Of a stretch of DNA of 64,000 bases, positions 19,233 through 26,571 are shown in pieces. Origin of the DNA: Candidatus Bathyarchaeota archaeon. GTDB taxonomy: Archaea > Thermoproteota > Bathyarchaeia > TCS64. Location of the stretch: the NCBI GenBank assembly GCA_050053595.1, contig JASFTK010000001.1, positions 25,842 through 89,841 of the forward strand, read 5' to 3'. Position 1 is the first letter of the stretch. Every line of letters begins with the position of its first letter. Under the pieces are notes generated by a model. That model had not been told where the DNA came from. It did no database searches and worked only from the letters and a program-made list of their open reading frames with translations. The translations under genes were made by a program, and so were the position numbers.

Positions 19233-20717
19233 CTATCTCTCCCATTTCTCGCCTATAGGGTAGATGCCCCACGGGAGGTTTTCATAGTCCAGGGTGCTCA
19301 GGTCAGCCGGGCCCAAGCCGGGGGGGTCAATAGGGTAGTCGACGGTGGACCAGGTGTCCCAATAAGCCTTGTGATGGACCCGACTTTTTATCTCGACGAT
19401 CTCAAGGCTGTCTACATCGATGCCGATTGTCTTCAACGGATCAGCGCTCATGGGAGCGTAGAGCTTCTCCGTGACAACTATGTGGCGGTTTTCCCCGATG
19501 TCTAGGCTCGCGATGAGGTCGATCTCCTGCTGGGCGCCCCGCCTCATAGGACCTGTCTCGACCCACTCCGCTGGGCCAAGATGCTCGATGACGCCTGTGA
19601 CGGTGACGGGGTTTCCAGATATCTGATGGAGCCACCCGCCTATGGTGACGGTGACCGTGTCACCCACCTTGTGGTTCTCCTTCAACTCCTCCAAGACCTT
19701 GGGGTCGGCAATACCGGTGGAGCACCAGTTCTTGGCCCCCTGCTCTATCAGCTCCTTTAGGATGTGGGTGCCGTCCCCGAGGCGGTCGTCATGGTAGGCG
19801 ATGACCACAGGCATCTCCCCCCTCTCAACCATCCCGATGACCTCCGCAACCCCTTCCGCTGCCTTGGGTAAGCTCCGGGTCAGGGCCTCCCTGAGACTCC
19901 AGACGAGGTCACTGAGGTCCTGGGCTGCCTCCTCTGCAAGAGCACGGTCGCCATCGGTGACGACAAAGACGGAGACCCCAACATCGGGGACGTCGGCATA
20001 GGCGTAGCCCGGGGCGACGGACGCGCAGTAGGCTCCTTTTTCCTCCCATTCCCTGCAGCGGTCGTAGACGGTCTTCATGGGATGGTAGCCGCTGGCTTGG
20101 AAGACGCTGGCACAGACTACACCTGGCCTCCTGTGGGCCATGGCGGGTTTAAAGTTGCCTCGGATGGTCTCGACCATACACCGGGCGGCAGTGACCCCGA
20201 CGTCGTGGGTGTCAAGGTGGGGGTATGTCTTGAGGATGAAGACGCCATCTACCGCGTTGGCGAGTTCGATGTCCTCGTTGGCGTGGAGGTCTAGGGTGAC
20301 CATGATGGGTATTTTCCCTACCACTTTCCTGACTCTGCGGGCGAGCTCCGCCTCTGGTCGGGGGACCCCTGTGACTGCCATGGCGCCGTGGAGGGCCAAG
20401 AGCACCCCATCTAGCTTCCCAGCCCCCTTCAGGCGGTCCATTATCCTCCCCGAGATGACGTCGAAGGACTCCGTGGTGTTCCAGCTCCCGTATCCCGTTG
20501 TAGCAGGCCAGCTGGTCCTGATAATGCCGACGAGCTCGACGTCCTCCGCCGCCTCCGCGACCTCCTTGTACCCGGTGAGATACCCTTTCCCTTCCCCCTC
20601 CGTGTCGAGAGTCTCTTCCCCATACTTTATCCCGCCCTTCTCCCAGAGTTCCAGGGTGGAGATCTCAGGGCAGAAAGTGCAGGTCTCATGAGAATAGTTT
20701 ACCACTGCGATCCTCAA
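19233..20717 (-). CDS. M81 family metallopeptidase (MlrC/microcystinase-like)
   Basis: The N-terminus MRIAVVNYSHETCTF matches the MlrC-family DUF1485 start. 494 aa. Confidence 0.75.
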   Translation of the reverse strand: MRIAVVNYSHETCTFCPEISTLELWEKGGIKYGEETLDTEGEGKGYLTGYKEVAEAAEDVELVGIIRTSWPATTGYGSWNTTESFDVISGRIMDRLKGAGKLDGVLLALHGAMAVTGVPRPEAELARRVRKVVGKIPIMVTLDLHANEDIELANAVDGVFILKTYPHLDTHDVGVTAARCMVETIRGNFKPAMAHRRPGVVCASVFQASGYHPMKTVYDRCREWEEKGAYCASVAPGYAYADVPDVGVSVFVVTDGDRALAEEAAQDLSDLVWSLREALTRSLPKAAEGVAEVIGMVERGEMPVVIAYHDDRLGDGTHILKELIEQGAKNWCSTGIADPKVLEELKENHKVGDTVTVTIGGWLHQISGNPVTVTGVIEHLGPAEWVETGPMRRGAQQEIDLIASLDIGENRHIVVTEKLYAPMSADPLKTIGIDVDSLEIVEIKSRVHHKAYWDTWSTVDYPIDPPGLGPADLSTLDYENLPWGIYPIGEKWER

Positions 20718-20794
20718 ATTTCAAACCTCTTGATGTGTTTCTGTCTCCTGATATATTAGGATGTGGAGCCCGCTACTTGAGGGCACCCTCCCAG

Positions 20795-21994
20795 TCAGCC
20801 GGGGGGTCTTACCCTATCCTTGACTAAGACTAGGATAAGGACAGCGTCTACCAATGCCAGGACGAGGTTGATGGCTATGGGGGCGTTGAATCCGAACCTG
20901 TCGAAGAGGAGACCGCCGATGAAGGGGGCGGGGAAAGCTATCAGCCCCCTGAAGGTCCCGTAGGAGCTTATCTCCTGACCCCTCCTCTCCTTGTCAACGT
21001 TGCTGGCTATCCAGGCCTGCTCGGCGGGTGACCACAAGCCACCTGCAACCCCCATGATGACCTGGGCAGCGATGACGGAATAGAAGTCTTTAGAGAAGAT
21101 GACAAGGCCGAGAGAGACTACAGCCATCACCTGAGATAAAAATAGGAAACGGACGTAACCGAGCCTGTCCGCAAGCCTGCCGAGGAGGATCTGGCTCAGC
21201 GCCATCGCCCCAGTCATCGCCGATACGGTGATGCCGAGCATGTCGGGGGTGAAACCGTAACCGCTGGAGAGCATCCCGTTAAGGAGCCTGTGTCCCATGT
21301 TGAAGGCGAAAAGGTCGAGAGACATCGCAGCGTACCAGCCCCACATGTAGCGGGGAGGCTTGAAAGAGTTGATGAGGGTCCCGGCGATCTCCCGCCATCT
21401 AGGAGGGGAACTATCAGTCTTAGCCATGGTCTCAGGGAGCCTCAACCAGACAACCACAAGGCATAGCAACCCGAGAAAAGTGGCCGAGCCGAAAACAGTC
21501 CTAAACCCGTAAGTCTTGGCAACGAAGCCAGTGGCTAGGGTAGCCACAAGGCCTACTCCTAGGTGGAAAGATCCTATGATGCTGTAGGTGTGTCCCAGCT
21601 CTGATGGTTCTGAGGACTCGGCTATCAGGGCGTTCCAGACGGGATATATAGCAGAGGACATCCCGCTGAATACGACCCCGATGAATATATGGGTCCAGTT
21701 ACTAGCGAAGACGTAAGTCACCGCCGCTGCAAGTATCAGTATATCCCTCACAATGATGAATCTCCTCCTGCCGTAAGCGTCGGAAGCCCTCCCCACTAAG
21801 GGCTGTACGATGATCACGGTGAGGTCAAGGAGACTCTCAAGACCCCCGAGACTGGTCATGGGGACCCCAAGGCTCAGTACGAAGGGTTGCCAGATCACAC
21901 CCCATATGCTGAAGATGGTCCCTCTAAGGGCTGATATTGTGGCCAGGGTGGCGACCCGCCCCCGTCTCCTCAGCCTCTCCATCAAGGACATCAA
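20795..21994 (-). CDS. MFS transporter
   Basis: A 399-aa polytopic membrane protein with MFS topology. Confidence 0.8.
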   Translation of the reverse strand: MMSLMERLRRRGRVATLATISALRGTIFSIWGVIWQPFVLSLGVPMTSLGGLESLLDLTVIIVQPLVGRASDAYGRRRFIIVRDILILAAAVTYVFASNWTHIFIGVVFSGMSSAIYPVWNALIAESSEPSELGHTYSIIGSFHLGVGLVATLATGFVAKTYGFRTVFGSATFLGLLCLVVVWLRLPETMAKTDSSPPRWREIAGTLINSFKPPRYMWGWYAAMSLDLFAFNMGHRLLNGMLSSGYGFTPDMLGITVSAMTGAMALSQILLGRLADRLGYVRFLFLSQVMAVVSLGLVIFSKDFYSVIAAQVIMGVAGGLWSPAEQAWIASNVDKERRGQEISSYGTFRGLIAFPAPFIGGLLFDRFGFNAPIAINLVLALVDAVLILVLVKDRVRPPG

Positions 21995-22147
21995 GTTTCC
22001 CTCGGTACCTTATCTTTCACACAGTCTATGGCTATAAGAATTCAGTTCGTGCTAAAGGAAAAACCGGAGGGTCAGATCTACCTTTTCATGTCCTGACCAT
22101 ATCGGGCTGGGCTTCAGGCTCTGCGTAAAAGGTTTTATCCATGGAAA

Positions 22148-22642
22148 GTGGCCCATTGTCTCTTGATCTCGATGGTTAGCCAAGGTGATATTGATGAGTT
22201 CGGGGATCTCTGGGCTCTTCTGTACTGTGTTTTCTCCAGGGAGATGGTGGACACTTTCGGGGAGGAAGGTAGGGCAGCCTTGATCCGGGCTGTCAAGGCT
22301 TACGGGAGAGCACGGGGGGATAGGTTGAGGGAGAGACATCAGGAGCAGGGGCTACCCATAAACCTGAGATCCTTGTTTGAGCACTATGACCTACCCGGGC
22401 ACTCAGGGACGGTGAAGGAGAGGACCACCTTCGAGGACGATAAGCTCATCTCCTACACCTATGGGTGTCCCTACGAAACTCAATGGAGGGAGCGAGGATG
22501 CCTCGACGTTGGGAAGATCTACTGCCAGTACTTCCACCACGCCTTCTGGCAGAGTTATAGATCGGACCTCGATGTCCAGCTCCCTGAGATCCTCACAACT
22601 GACGACCCTCACTGCCTCTTCGTCGTGACCCAGCCAAAATAA
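22148..22642 (+). CDS. hypothetical Cys/His-containing protein, possibly ATC-hydrolase-like
   Basis: A 164-aa ORF with GCPYE...CQYFHH. The family assignment is tentative. A later Met may be the true start. Confidence 0.45.
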   Translation: MAHCLLISMVSQGDIDEFGDLWALLYCVFSREMVDTFGEEGRAALIRAVKAYGRARGDRLRERHQEQGLPINLRSLFEHYDLPGHSGTVKERTTFEDDKLISYTYGCPYETQWRERGCLDVGKIYCQYFHHAFWQSYRSDLDVQLPEILTTDDPHCLFVVTQPK

Positions 22643-22643
22643 T

Positions 22644-23819
22644 TCAGCGGTCTGAATGCTCTTCCTTTATCCTTTTCAGGAGGACCTCGTCGGTGAGGAC
22701 GTCTATGGCTGTGTGGGCGAGACCCTTTGCTCCGATAATGACCGCTTCGTGGGCGATATCTGATAATGTTGCCTCAGCCGCTTCGTAGGAATGCAGCGCG
22801 ATGTCCTCGCCGATGAAGATGGAGGCGCTCGCTGCTGGTATCGCATGGCTCACTGTCCCAAAGTCGGTAGAAGCCCCAGGGCTCTCGGAGGGGGTCTCGG
22901 GGAACTGGGCTCCAAGGGTTTCGAGGTTTGCCTTGAATGTTTCGGAGAGGGCCATGTTGGGGACCTTGTTTGCATAGGTATTCGCGACCTTCCTGAATGT
23001 GACTTTCGTCCCAGTTGCCAAGGCTGCCCCTCGGGCGCAGTTCTTCACCCTCTCCAGGGTCTCCTCCAAGAGTTCCATGGTAGGGGCTCTCACGTAGAAA
23101 TGGGCAGAGGCGGTTTCGGGGACGATGTTGGGGGCAGCACCGCCGTCCTTGATAACCCCATGGATCCGGATGTCCCGCCTGATGTGCTGCCTGAGGGCGT
23201 TTACCCCTTGGTAAGTGAGCAGGACGCCTTCCAAGGCGTTGATACCCTTCTCGGGGATAGCCCCAGCGTGGGCGGCTTTCCCCTTGAAGTAGATCATGAA
23301 GGACTCCCTCGCCAGGGATGTGGATCCCACCCCATACCGGTTGGAGGGGTGGACCATGAGAGCGGCGTCCGCCCCCTTGATCTCCTCTAGCATGATGACC
23401 TTCCCCCCAGCGTTCTCAGCGTAACCCTCCTCAGCAGGGGTCCCGAAGACGATCACCGTCCCCTCAAGATCCTCTATGACAGCCCGTATACCAACACCCG
23501 CCCCCAGAGCAGCCGAGGCGATGATGTTGTGGCCACAGGCGTGACCAAGCTCAGGCAGTGCATCGTACTCAGCGAGTATAGCGACGGTCGGCCCCTCTTT
23601 CTTCCCCCTGAGGACCGCTTTGAACGCTGTGGAAAGCCCTGAGGTCCCCCTCTCGACCTCAAAACCTAATCTTTCTAGCTCCGACGCCAGGAGCTCCGAA
23701 GCCTTATACTCCTGATGTCCCAACTCGGGCTCTTCGTGTATCGCGGTGCTGACCTCGATGAGCCTTTCCCTATGAGCGTCGATCTCCCTAGAAGCCGTTT
23801 CCTTCAGAGATTTGACCAT
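22644..23819 (-). CDS. M20 family amidohydrolase/peptidase
   Basis: Metal-binding motifs HACGHN and EEG plus a dimerisation domain, giving hippurate-hydrolase / AbgB-like architecture. Confidence 0.8.
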   Translation of the reverse strand: MVKSLKETASREIDAHRERLIEVSTAIHEEPELGHQEYKASELLASELERLGFEVERGTSGLSTAFKAVLRGKKEGPTVAILAEYDALPELGHACGHNIIASAALGAGVGIRAVIEDLEGTVIVFGTPAEEGYAENAGGKVIMLEEIKGADAALMVHPSNRYGVGSTSLARESFMIYFKGKAAHAGAIPEKGINALEGVLLTYQGVNALRQHIRRDIRIHGVIKDGGAAPNIVPETASAHFYVRAPTMELLEETLERVKNCARGAALATGTKVTFRKVANTYANKVPNMALSETFKANLETLGAQFPETPSESPGASTDFGTVSHAIPAASASIFIGEDIALHSYEAAEATLSDIAHEAVIIGAKGLAHTAIDVLTDEVLLKRIKEEHSDR

Positions 23820-23867
23820 GGAATAGCTTAGCCACTATCAACTAAAATATACAGCGGTCGTGAACGG

Positions 23868-24512
23868 CTATCTCCCAGGGCTGGTAAGTAGCACCATCCC
23901 TCCGAGCTGGCTCAGCCGTCGTCCCGCAGCGGTTTCAACCTCAACGATTGTGGCTTTTATCCCTCTGCTCTTTGAGGCTTGCAGAAGCCTCTGACCCCTC
24001 CTCCTGTGGGCTGCCAGAAACTCATCGGTGAGGATCAGGTGCTCAGGCTCAGGCCCCCCATTGGCAAAGTAAACCTTCTCCACCGCCCCCAAGGAGTATA
24101 GGATAGCGTCGGCACGTTCATCGTTCAGTCTCCGCTCTAGCAGCCGAAGAATGCTATCCGCTTCCCCATGGGTAGCTTCGTCGAGAGCATTCTTGAACTC
24201 GTCGGCTCTGACCAATACGGAAACCTCATCCGGGGAGGTAGCTGAGCCCTCGATCTCTACAAACGTGGCAACCCCGGTCATCCATGGCTGGTGCTTGGCG
24301 ATGTGATCAAGGAAGTCCCCGGCGTAACCCTTTCTCGGGGGCGCTGCAACGACCAAACTCCCCACCCCCTCACTGAGTATTGGTCTCAGAGCGTCTACCA
24401 CCCCCTCAAAGAAATTGTAGAGCCCCTTCCCCTTGACCTCGATAGTTGCATGGGGCTTAACTACCCTGCTGAAGACCCTCCAGACCACAGCCTGACCCCC
24501 GTCAAAGCCCAC
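23868..24512 (-). CDS. eRF1/Pelota-superfamily paralog (central and C-terminal domain only) with N-terminal GGQ
   Basis: The C-terminus GIKATIVEVETAAGRRLSQLGGMVLLTSPG aligns to eRF1 domain 3 ([30 protein letters not shown]). LVVAAPPRKGYAGDF matches eRF1 domain-2 LVLAGSADF. GGQ occupies residues 5-7 after a GTG start. Confidence 0.6.
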   Translation of the reverse strand: MGFDGGQAVVWRVFSRVVKPHATIEVKGKGLYNFFEGVVDALRPILSEGVGSLVVAAPPRKGYAGDFLDHIAKHQPWMTGVATFVEIEGSATSPDEVSVLVRADEFKNALDEATHGEADSILRLLERRLNDERADAILYSLGAVEKVYFANGGPEPEHLILTDEFLAAHRRRGQRLLQASKSRGIKATIVEVETAAGRRLSQLGGMVLLTSPGR

Positions 24513-24876
24513 TAGAACAGCGACAGGATAACCCCGCCTATAACCTCGCCTCCTTCTTGGCGTCTTCAGTCCCCCTTTCCCCCTATGATTTACCCTACGG
24601 GGTTTAAATTTTCCACACGCTTCTGCAGAGGCGTCTCAAAAATGTTGGGTCTTTTACCTGCGACCTAGACCTAAAGACCAACTGCTCCAAGGGAGAGGCC
24701 CGGTTTAAGGGAATATCTCTGCGTCCAAGTCTGGAAATCCGAGAGCTTGGTGCTGAACCCCTCTCTAAGGTTGGTGATCCTTCCAGAAAGGAATGTCTTT
24801 AGCCCGTAACCGCGGGATGTTTCTCTTGAATCCATCTATCTTAAAAACCCCTTAAACTACGAGTATCCGTCCTGTC

Positions 24877-26058
24877 ATGCCTTTGAACGGTGAGAGAGCC
24901 TTCGAACTGATGCAGAGGGACGGGGTTGATACCCTTGTCGCCTCATCGACTGAGAATGTCTACTATATCTCCAACTACTGGAGCGTTGGGAAGAGGTTGG
25001 GATGCGGCATCGACGCATTTACTATACTCCCCATAGAGAGTTACCCCGCTCTCGTAGCGCCCCTCAACGAGGCGGATCTTATCCTTGAGAACCAGACCTG
25101 GATGCAAGACCTGAGGTTCTACGGGGGGACCAGGACCTCAGTTGGGGACACAGAGGAGCCCCCAGAACAGTTGGCTGCTCTAATTGAGCTCCACAGTTCC
25201 TCACAGCCTGGGGAGAGCGGGGTTAAAACCCTCATCAACGCCCTTGAGGAAAAGGGGCTGACCAATGGAGTGATCGCTTTGGACACAGGGGGTCTCACCC
25301 CGATCCAGTATGAGCGTATCCAATCCGGGTTGAAAGATGCGGAGTTGATCGATGGTTCAAGTCTCCTCAGGGAGATGAGGCTGGTCAAGACTGAGGATGA
25401 GATTGACAGGATTATGAGGGCTACCGCTATCACCGAGAAGTCCATGGAGGACGCCCTAGAGATCGCCAGGGACGAGATCACCGAGTTGGATCTGGCGGGG
25501 ATGTTCGGTTACTCCGTTGCCTATGACGGTGGGCGGGTCACACAGAATATGATTGGCTTCGGTCAGAGGAGCGCTTATCCCAACCCTCTCCCCACACCCC
25601 GTGAGGCTAGGAAAAGGGATCTAGTCCGCCTCACCCTTGGCTGCACCTGGGATCACTATCATTCCAATATATCCCGGACCGCTGTGATCGGCCGCCCCCT
25701 TGCCAAGGCCAGACGGGTAGGGGAGTCAGTTATCGCGGCCCAGGACGCAGCCCTAGACATCGTCGAACCAGGGGTGAAGGTTGGGGACCTCTACTCCGCC
25801 GCGTCCAAGGAGCTGGAAGGGGCAGAGGTGAAGACCAGGTCTCCCGACATCGGCCACGGCATCGGCATCGAATGCTATGAAGCTCCTGCGATCACTGAAG
25901 GGAGCGAGACCGAACTTCTCGAGGGGATGGTCATCAACATTGACATCTCTCTCCTAGAGTTGGGTTGGAATGGGATCCAGCTGGAAGACACCGCGCTAGT
26001 GACCTCAGACGGCCACGAGCTACTCACCCAGACCGACAGGACTCTATACCTCCTATAA
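24877..26058 (+). CDS. M24 family Xaa-Pro aminopeptidase/creatinase-like
   Basis: A creatinase-type N-domain plus a pita-bread M24 domain with HGIGIE. Confidence 0.8.
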   Translation: MPLNGERAFELMQRDGVDTLVASSTENVYYISNYWSVGKRLGCGIDAFTILPIESYPALVAPLNEADLILENQTWMQDLRFYGGTRTSVGDTEEPPEQLAALIELHSSSQPGESGVKTLINALEEKGLTNGVIALDTGGLTPIQYERIQSGLKDAELIDGSSLLREMRLVKTEDEIDRIMRATAITEKSMEDALEIARDEITELDLAGMFGYSVAYDGGRVTQNMIGFGQRSAYPNPLPTPREARKRDLVRLTLGCTWDHYHSNISRTAVIGRPLAKARRVGESVIAAQDAALDIVEPGVKVGDLYSAASKELEGAEVKTRSPDIGHGIGIECYEAPAITEGSETELLEGMVINIDISLLELGWNGIQLEDTALVTSDGHELLTQTDRTLYLL

Positions 26059-26118
26059 TCTGACTCTTTATCTGAAAAGAGTTGACTTAAATTTTTCAAA
26101 ACCACAATTTTAGACGAT

Positions 26119-26571
26119 ATGGTGGAACTTGACACGGTAGATATAAGGATCTTGGAGATCCTCCAGAACAGTGCAAGGACCCCCTACTCTGCCATAGCCC
26201 GTGAGCTAGACATCCCCGAATCCACCGTGAGGTATAGGGTGGATCGGCTCAGGGACAAAGGCGTCATCACCTCTTTCATGGCGCTCTTGGATCCACGGAA
26301 GATCGGCCTCAACATCATCGCTATCGCCCTGATAAAGGTGGAAGCGAATCAGCTGGCAGAGGCCTCCGAGGTCCTCGCCACCTTCGACGAGTCCCACCAC
26401 CTTTTCAGGAGCACCGGCTCCTTCGACCTCGTCTCGGTTGTCCACGCAAGGGACATAGGGCATCTAGATGACCTCATAGAGAGGATCAAGAGGATCCCGG
26501 GTGTGAGGGAGGCCTCGGTGGAGGTGGCGACCTACCTCGTGAAGGTGGAGCCGAGATACAAGCTGCGATGA
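26119..26571 (+). CDS. Lrp/AsnC family transcriptional regulator
   Basis: An N-terminal HTH (DIRILEILQNSARTPYSAIARELDIPESTVRYRV) plus a C-terminal RAM domain. Confidence 0.85.
   Translation: MVELDTVDIRILEILQNSARTPYSAIARELDIPESTVRYRVDRLRDKGVITSFMALLDPRKIGLNIIAIALIKVEANQLAEASEVLATFDESHHLFRSTGSFDLVSVVHARDIGHLDDLIERIKRIPGVREASVEVATYLVKVEPRYKLR

Follow-up and report, generated by a model that had tools for sequence, protein, structure and literature searches.

On a contig of a Candidatus Bathyarchaeota archaeon (JASFTK010000001.1, positions 25,842 to 89,841, a stretch of 64,000 nucleotides that we call the window), a minus-strand gene at 23868..24563 belongs to a conserved, uncharacterised family that is an architectural variant of the family of the ribosome-rescue factor Pelota. 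Its members are about 240 amino acids (aa) long and consist of a Lys/Arg tail followed by the Pelota central and C-terminal domains, with no N domain; this is a conserved architecture, not decay. The family is most likely a non-catalytic ribosome factor that acts independently of mRNA, and we give a probability of roughly 55% to the explanation as a whole, a Pelota-derived factor that would bind the ribosome whatever the mRNA, with a role as a passive 'bolt' for ABCE1 as the specific reading we prefer. An earlier note on this stretch had taken the gene for a truncated release-factor-like module with a GGQ motif at its extreme N-terminus, paired with the M20 metallopeptidase encoded beside it. 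The gene and its domains lie at the following positions:

23868..24563, minus strand: full family-length coding region, 231 codons that begin with ACG (24563-24561) and end at the TAG stop (23870-23868), for a Lys/Arg-rich tail and two Pelota-like domains, central and C-terminal
24126..24524, minus strand: central RNase-H-fold domain (residues ~14-146)
23871..24116, minus strand: C-terminal Pelota/eRF1 domain 3, L7Ae-like fold, with the signature AG.RLSQLGG

The similarity of the window product to the eRF1/Pelota superfamily, which the earlier note had proposed, is far beyond chance, and it is closest to Pelota/Dom34, not to eRF1. The protein matches the NCBIfam pelota profile TIGR00111 at E 7.5e-7 (residues 33-207 on profile positions 181-344 of 351) and A. 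fulgidus Pelota (3oby) at E 5e-6. Its TIGR00111 score of 28.8 bits is below the curated cutoff of 177.65 for this equivalog, which fits the view that it is not a housekeeping factor, although its nearest kin are Pelota/Dom34 and not the eRF1 to which it had been aligned. Among the profiles proposed for recognising it, Pfam eRF1_3 gives a sub-threshold E of 0.18 on the single protein and no Pfam baeRF model matches at E<=1; the match came from TIGR00111. Matches of the single protein to Pfam and NCBIfam are weak, and the assignment needed family alignments and structure. When the family is compared by hhalign with a canonical 340-aa Pelota (P0220), the two align from strand 1 to the C-terminus (97.6%, E 4.7e-12), covering residues 129-337 only of the Pelota. 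Against PDB sequences the family profile matches Pelota/Dom34 only, with alignments that start at Pelota residues ~177-198, and no eRF1 in the PDB is matched at E<=1.

A structural model leads to the same place. Built by AlphaFold2 on the 231-aa form with a 49-sequence alignment, it has a predicted local distance difference test score (pLDDT) of 88.5 and a predicted template-modelling score (pTM) of 0.83, with disorder confined to residues 1-10. The modelled central domain has five strands (15-21, 24-30, 35-42, 69-74 and 100-105) and a helix (48-64), and is followed by a C-terminal alpha/beta domain. Foldseek against the PDB returns Dom34 at 5e-13, archaeal Pelota at ~1e-11, aRF1/eRF1 at 1e-7 to 1e-5 and Balon at 6e-6, so that the expected structural match was found. 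Judging from the coverage of the hhalign alignment and of the model, the whole central domain is predicted to be present and only the N (Sm-like) domain to be gone, with ~13 residues before strand 1. The absence of a codon-recognition N domain thus stands, but the claim that the central domain lacks its first half fails once the upstream codons are included in the model, where the five-stranded domain is complete. The LVVAAPP and AG.RLSQLGG segments that had been matched to eRF1 do occupy true homologous positions of the superfamily in the 3oby, profile and hhalign comparisons, while the GGQ, supposedly co-linear with the eRF1 loop, does not.

The family is broad and uniform in length. A first search returned 76 homologs, most of them 242-249 aa, and those named by NCBI are Bathyarchaeota/Bathyarchaeia. 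An exhaustive profile search that took in 1.84 billion representatives gave 170 matches at E<=0.001, of which 132 were below 1e-10; full-length members below 1e-10 are nearly all 220-270 aa, and many others are fragments from short contigs. Canonical-length Pelotas first appear in the family profile search at 4e-10 and 2e-7, with a wide gap in score. One long multi-stretch match (P0167) was rejected as a repetitive artefact, and two more (P0222 and P0226) were set aside as P0167-like, their sequences unread. The family spans ~130 clusters at 50% identity, with relatives in at least 144 species-representative genomes, three complete or chromosome-level Bathyarchaeia genomes among them; the 80 genomes listed of the 144 are mostly Bathyarchaeia. 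OY970280.1, CP170178.1 and OY969706.1 are complete Bathyarchaeia chromosomes with the gene. An architecture found so widely refutes the alternative of a decayed fragment, and we likewise reject a reading of the family as pseudogene fragments, given its conserved length and architecture. Four loci (L016, L041, L052 and L092) lie on short contigs in metagenome-assembled genomes named Krumholzibacteriaceae, Sulfotelmatobacter, Methanocella and Flavobacteriaceae, and are probably binning contaminants in these non-Bathyarchaeia bins. More distant members bear NCBI names of Promethearchaeota and Thorarchaeota; these Asgard members were reached with the profile of a distant subset (A5), Bathyarchaeia filling the list of the wider profile.

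Several features recur across the family. Over 42 representatives the median tail is 8 residues long, with medians of 5 Lys/Arg and 0 Asp/Glu, and the median isoelectric point (pI) of the family is 9.5. The Gly of an RG(Y/F)P motif is invariant, W28, S32, Y49, E53, G66, H87 and Q195 are conserved, and the central domain carries a family motif, F.DH..KHH.W. Where Pelota has AGPGF the family has AAP[AP]R (AAPPR in the window), and the C-terminal signature AG.R..QLGG is kept throughout. No canonical Pelota or aRF1 was found in the window or in the 92 loci searched with the family hidden Markov model. JGI labels members 'stalled ribosome rescue protein Dom34' and NCBI 'hypothetical protein', mostly without a precomputed Pfam domain, and we found no description of the family in the literature on Pelota in Bathyarchaeota or Asgard archaea, or on Pelota with aEF1 or ABCE1.

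The length of the window copy itself has to be read with care. The mechanical open reading frame (ORF) has 214 aa and runs on the minus strand from a GTG at 24512 to the TAG stop at 23870-23868; upstream of that GTG, ~41 in-frame codons extend to the next stop without an ATG, GTG or TTG. The earlier note was correct about this lack of upstream starts and mistaken in accepting the GTG as the real one, which is an artefact of the ORF call. The elements that bear on the start are:

24561..24563, minus strand: ACG codon at the position of the homologs' start codon, from DNA alignment and codon comparison
24525..24557, minus strand: basic-tail codons, RRRRGYRRGYP (tail plus RG(Y/F)P motif), in which Gly11 is family-invariant
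24510..24512, minus strand: GTG of the mechanical ORF call, the codon of Val18, which in the AlphaFold2 model lies midway along the first strand of the central domain
24571..24583, minus strand: G-rich Shine-Dalgarno-like run, GGGGGAAAGGGGG, paired in the alignment with GGGGGAGGAGG (L001) and GGGAGAGGAGG (L013)
24603..24608, minus strand: TTTAAA, an archaeal TATA-box-like sequence ~40 nt upstream of the ACG, its position kept in L001, L004, L013 and L014

Homologs of 237-257 aa begin with M-x-RRRRGYRRGYPVAVL, and the same peptide is encoded in frame upstream of the window GTG; in the homologs from the first search the N-terminus is M-A-RRRRGYRRGYPVAVLIGFD, for which the window has the in-frame counterpart ..KTPRRRRGYRRGYPVAVLVGFDGGQ... 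Over the 22 codons from the ACG, the window and L001 share 4 identical codons and differ by 14 synonymous changes and 4 residue changes, and RRRRGYRRGYPVAVL is identical at the protein level despite those 14 synonymous codon differences; the region has therefore evolved under purifying selection for what it encodes. The 93 family ORFs group at 237-257 aa in length and only two are shorter than 237 aa, one being the 214 aa of the window; the JGI gene call of the identical protein (P0001, 206 aa) likewise starts downstream. From the lengths of the homologs and the tail peptide encoded upstream it follows that the 'GGQ at its extreme N-terminus' is an artefact of ORF calling.

In the seven loci whose start codon was compared, the codon aligned to the window ACG is ATG (L001, L004, L013 and L014) or TTG (L007, L008 and L010). 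The window copy thus carries a non-canonical or lost start codon. The ACG is either a near-cognate start, a recent start-loss mutation or a base or consensus error, so that the copy either is translated by near-cognate initiation or has lost its activity recently. The GTG at 24512 is unlikely to be a functional start: in the model it falls within strand 1, and no Shine-Dalgarno-like sequence lies directly upstream of it. The run at 24571..24583 appears to be placed for the ACG/ATG position and not for the GTG, the TTTAAA box is a putative promoter, and the spacing of both elements to the start is kept in the homologous loci. The rest of the window ORF is intact, with all invariant family residues kept.

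Once the N-terminus is restored, the GGQ no longer stands where a release factor would need it. Two elements matter here:

24492..24500, minus strand: GGG GGT CAG, encoding GGQ (residues 22-24 of the 231-aa form)
24423..24437, minus strand: KGKGL (residues 43-47), the loop that joins strand 3 to the helix and corresponds structurally to the GGQ loop of aeRF1; minimal and without glutamine

The catalytic glutamine of aeRF1 sits in an extended loop that leads from strand 3 to the helix after it (Burroughs and Aravind 2019, PMC6514570). In the model of the window protein the GGQ forms the hairpin turn from strand 1 (15-21) to strand 2 (24-30), and hhalign pairs window GFDGGQAVV with Pelota VLDDERADF, which places GGQ opposite 'DER'. 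Among 357 unique full-length family members the tripeptide GGQ occurs anywhere in just 3, and the columns of the window G-G-Q are most often [D/E][D/N/R][R/H]. At the true loop position the family is Lys/Arg/Gly-rich; glutamine is present there in 18% of the 357 members and none is conserved, and the window loop carries a 5-residue deletion relative to L013 and L014. The window GGQ is a chance tripeptide, not a catalytic motif, and its reading as a release-factor motif is not supported. Because the GGQ is misplaced and the true loop has no conserved glutamine, the family, like Dom34, is predicted from sequence and model to have no release-factor catalysis.

The neighbouring M20 gene (22644-23819) is co-directional, and its ATG lies 48 nt past the stop of the Pelota-like gene, as had been noticed; the functional pairing built on that arrangement does not survive comparison. 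When the M20 protein was searched by tblastn against 92 loci, and three Thorarchaeota loci were added, M20 was found downstream in 2 of 95 other related loci (L013 and L014, the two closest species) and was absent from the remaining 93, including all three from Thorarchaeota. L001 encodes a ~60% identical protein in the same LeuRS - Lrp - M24 synteny and has an ATC_hydrolase gene directly next to it and no M20; in the window the M20 gene sits between the Pelota-like and ATC_hydrolase genes, which adjoin in L001. In other clades MFS, TrmB or EamA genes or a ribosomal/Rpb4/DUF655 cluster stand beside the Pelota-like gene. The 48-nt spacer contains one element of its own:

23843..23851, minus strand: TATATTTTA, ~28 nt before the M20 ATG

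In L013 and L014 the same place is taken by an A/T-rich element. TATATTTTA is likely a leaderless-type promoter of M20's own, a T-rich terminator, or both, which argues against an obligatory operon of the Pelota-like and M20 genes. PADLOC returned no defence-system match, and with no linkage conserved across lineages the proposed conflict or defence system is not supported. M20 is an unrelated, incidental neighbour.

How such a protein might act can be pictured from its relatives. In eRF1/Pelota-ABCE1 complexes from which the GTPase has gone, the C-terminal domain touches ABCE1's iron-sulfur (FeS) domain, the stalk base and also the sarcin-ricin loop, the central domain touches H71 and H89-H93, and the eRF1 N-terminal domain is delocalised in the ABCE1-bound state; on the ribosome, the same two domains of eRF1/Pelota, central and C-terminal, also pack on the delivering GTPase (PMC6813808). 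Given these contacts, a two-domain protein could plausibly occupy the same site. We propose that the family protein would dock in the factor-binding/A-site region as the central and C-terminal domains of Pelota/eRF1 do, with its C-terminal domain on the stalk base and sarcin-ricin loop and its central domain toward large-subunit rRNA. The basic tail would make up for the missing N domain by adding energy of binding to rRNA, and a protein with no sensor for the mRNA channel would bind whatever occupies the A-site codon. Peptidyl-tRNA would not be hydrolysed; in the reading we prefer, the protein, possibly delivered by aEF1alpha, would act as a passive 'bolt' for ABCE1, splitting or parking vacant or stalled ribosomes. 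Of the two outcomes we favour splitting with the help of ABCE1 over parking of the Balon kind.

Several observations weigh against this picture. The window copy has no canonical start codon, and it has the family's shortest loop from strand 3 to the helix; it may be non-functional. Pelota's PGF motif survives only in part (AGPGF to AAP[AP]R), so the interface with the GTPase may be altered, and the motif F.DH..KHH.W, without a counterpart in Pelota, hints at another partner. To call the family a 'paralog', finally, presupposes a canonical Pelota in the same genomes, as expected of a marker universal in archaea (COG1537, listed among the markers in PMC9258230). A more extended version, which we regard as possible and hold tentatively, is that of an accessory factor in Bathyarchaeia and some Asgard archaea (Thorarchaeota, Promethearchaeota) that would combine the central and C-terminal domains of Pelota with a tail in place of the sensor, and would recruit ABCE1 or park idle ribosomes; in Thorarchaeota a DUF2196 protein would then be a possible substitute for the N domain. 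A 78-aa DUF2196 gene (PF09962, E 6e-29) is found in the three Thorarchaeota loci (L093 7725-7961, L094 7725-7961 and L095 7752-7988), where it directly precedes the Pelota-like gene, co-directional with it and 12-39 nt away, in flanks that are otherwise unrelated. It is absent from the window and from 92 other loci, and it gave no significant match in the PDB and none in the literature. The Thorarchaeota protein may be a partner or an N-domain substitute.

Four other explanations bear on the family or on this copy of it. That the window copy is a recent pseudogene, or that ATG became ACG by sequencing or assembly error, seems to us somewhat unlikely. In its favour, the codon differs from the ATG or TTG of all seven loci whose start region was read, a product from the GTG would start within strand 1 and would not fold, the JGI call (P0001, 206 aa) begins downstream and the 214 aa of the window are one of two lengths below 237 among 93. 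Set against this, the remainder of the ORF is intact with its invariant residues, the promoter-like and Shine-Dalgarno-like elements are intact and near-cognate initiation is possible; in any case the explanation concerns the copy, not the family. Ribosome hibernation, or blocking of the A site after the manner of Balon or a dead baeRF-1, would have idle ribosomes protected or silenced independently of mRNA instead of being split. We consider it unlikely, although the superfamily is the same, the catalytic glutamine is lost in the same way, glutamine-less baeRF-1 families without flanking domains have been predicted to be A-site inhibitors (PMC6514570), Balon binds irrespective of mRNA, and the tail and pI of 9.5 would suit rRNA binding. 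Balon keeps an N domain at the decoding centre that the family does not have, the sequence and structure of the family are nearer Pelota than Balon, and across the 95 loci the annotated recurrent neighbours show no linkage to a hibernation factor.

A role away from the ribosome, as an RNA-binding protein (for instance in a K-turn ribonucleoprotein or an RNA-processing complex) that would use its L7Ae-like and RNase-H-fold domains and its Arg-rich tail, is distinctly improbable: those folds are common to all eRF1/Pelota C-terminal domains, the best two-domain matches are Pelota/Dom34, and AG.RLSQLGG is kept. We give next to no credence to the stand-alone GGQ peptidyl-tRNA hydrolase working with M20 in nascent-chain disposal or conflict, for which speak the presence of the tripeptide, the M20 gene 48 nt downstream on the same strand and the recurrence of the pair in L013 and L014. 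The tripeptide sits in the turn between strands 1 and 2, opposite the 'DER' of Pelota, and not between strand 3 and the helix; only 3 of the 357 members contain it, the true loop has no conserved glutamine, and the closest relatives are the catalytically inactive Pelota/Dom34. The M20 gene is missing from 93 of 95 other loci, L001 included, has an A/T-rich box of its own and belongs to no system matched by PADLOC.

The wider neighbourhood offers no conserved partner. Neighbour families clustered over 93 loci include, as recurrent members, a HisA/F-like gene, MfnB, a decarboxylase, an ATP-grasp protein, a thioredoxin and TFS. In the large soil/peat clade a convergent HisA/F-like gene is found in 57 loci and a divergent thioredoxin in 44, with a methanofuran-type cluster (MfnB, decarboxylase, ATP-grasp protein) further out. 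The nearest neighbour is on the opposite strand in 69 of 91 cases downstream and 67 of 86 upstream. A conserved operon partner is rejected, the recurring neighbours being clade synteny and mostly convergent or divergent. As a separate observation, the cluster in soil/peat Bathyarchaeia (L013-L091), with its HisA/F-like protein, 4-HFC-P synthase (MfnB), pyridoxal-phosphate (PLP) decarboxylase and ATP-grasp ligase, resembles methanofuran biosynthesis; examples lie at L055 7743-8480, L067 8936-10072 and L050 9520-10749. In the window itself (19233-26571) the gene is embedded in a cluster rich in genes for peptide and amino-acid catabolism:

19233-20717: M81/MlrC-like peptidase
20795-21994: MFS transporter
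22148-22642: ATC_hydrolase-family protein
22644-23819: M20 amidohydrolase
24877-26058: M24 Xaa-Pro peptidase
26119-26571: Lrp/AsnC regulator

Identity between the window and L013/L014 is ~61% for the Pelota-like protein, 81% for M20, 81-83% for ATC_hydrolase and 69-70% for M24; being less conserved than its neighbours, the Pelota-like factor therefore evolves faster.

If the family is indeed a ribosome factor, it would provide a natural test of what the central and C-terminal domains of Pelota/eRF1 do without the domain that reads the decoding site, and it would mean that two little-studied archaeal groups, for the most part uncultured, have an additional, lineage-specific layer of ribosome rescue, recycling or hibernation. 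One of the two, the Asgard archaea, is close to the origin of eukaryotes. For annotation, family members should not be counted as canonical Pelota, for which, as a marker, they may be mistaken in homology-based annotation, and to infer a release factor from a GGQ is misleading here. In the window, the claimed new peptidase-coupled system is removed.

Among known systems the nearest is Pelota/Dom34 (TIGR00111, COG1537), whose central and C-terminal domains are homologous to those of the family in sequence and fold, and which likewise has no catalytic glutamine, a basic loop after strand 3 and a C-terminal G..L..LGG. Pelota differs in its Sm-like N domain, whose loop A probes the mRNA channel and which is absent from all full-length family members; in its place the family has a Lys/Arg tail of ~8-15 residues and RG(Y/F)P. 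The family differs further in the change of AGPGF to AAP[AP]R and in the additional F.DH..KHH.W motif. In aeRF1/eRF1 an N domain (NIKS) stands where here ~13 residues precede strand 1, and the GGQ loop joins strand 3 to the helix, whereas the window loop has 5 residues and its GGQ lies in another element. VLRF-1 (Vms1-like) proteins have a GxuQ or GGxSQ loop longer than that of aeRF1, and the family loop is short and without a conserved glutamine.

The baeRF-1 families and Balon resemble the family as catalytically dead members of the superfamily, some baeRF-1 lacking flanking domains, that are predicted or shown to lie in the A site independently of mRNA. Loss of flanking domains has been reported for baeRF-1 and VLRF-1 families and not for the Dom34-like clade, and non-catalytic A-site inhibitors were predicted among the glutamine-less baeRF-1 families that lack those domains (Burroughs and Aravind, PMC6514570). 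These proteins are bacterial and belong to an aeRF-1-like clade, not a Dom34-like one, whereas the named members of the family are archaeal. Balon binds irrespective of mRNA through an N domain that contacts the decoding centre; unlike the family it has this N domain, with its HP motif, and an EF-Tu-binding hairpin, and the structural score of the family against it is lower than against Pelota. No HPF-like neighbour is found among the annotated recurrent neighbour families of the loci. A further parallel, in make-up, is artificial: engineered eRF1 'MC' fragments without the N domain (reportedly from Frolova et al. 2000 and Kononenko et al. 2008) are said to bind ribosomes and eRF3 and to stimulate its GTPase with no release. 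Those fragments have the same two domains but are laboratory truncations of a catalytic factor, whereas the family is natural, conserved and of the Pelota type, with a basic tail added.

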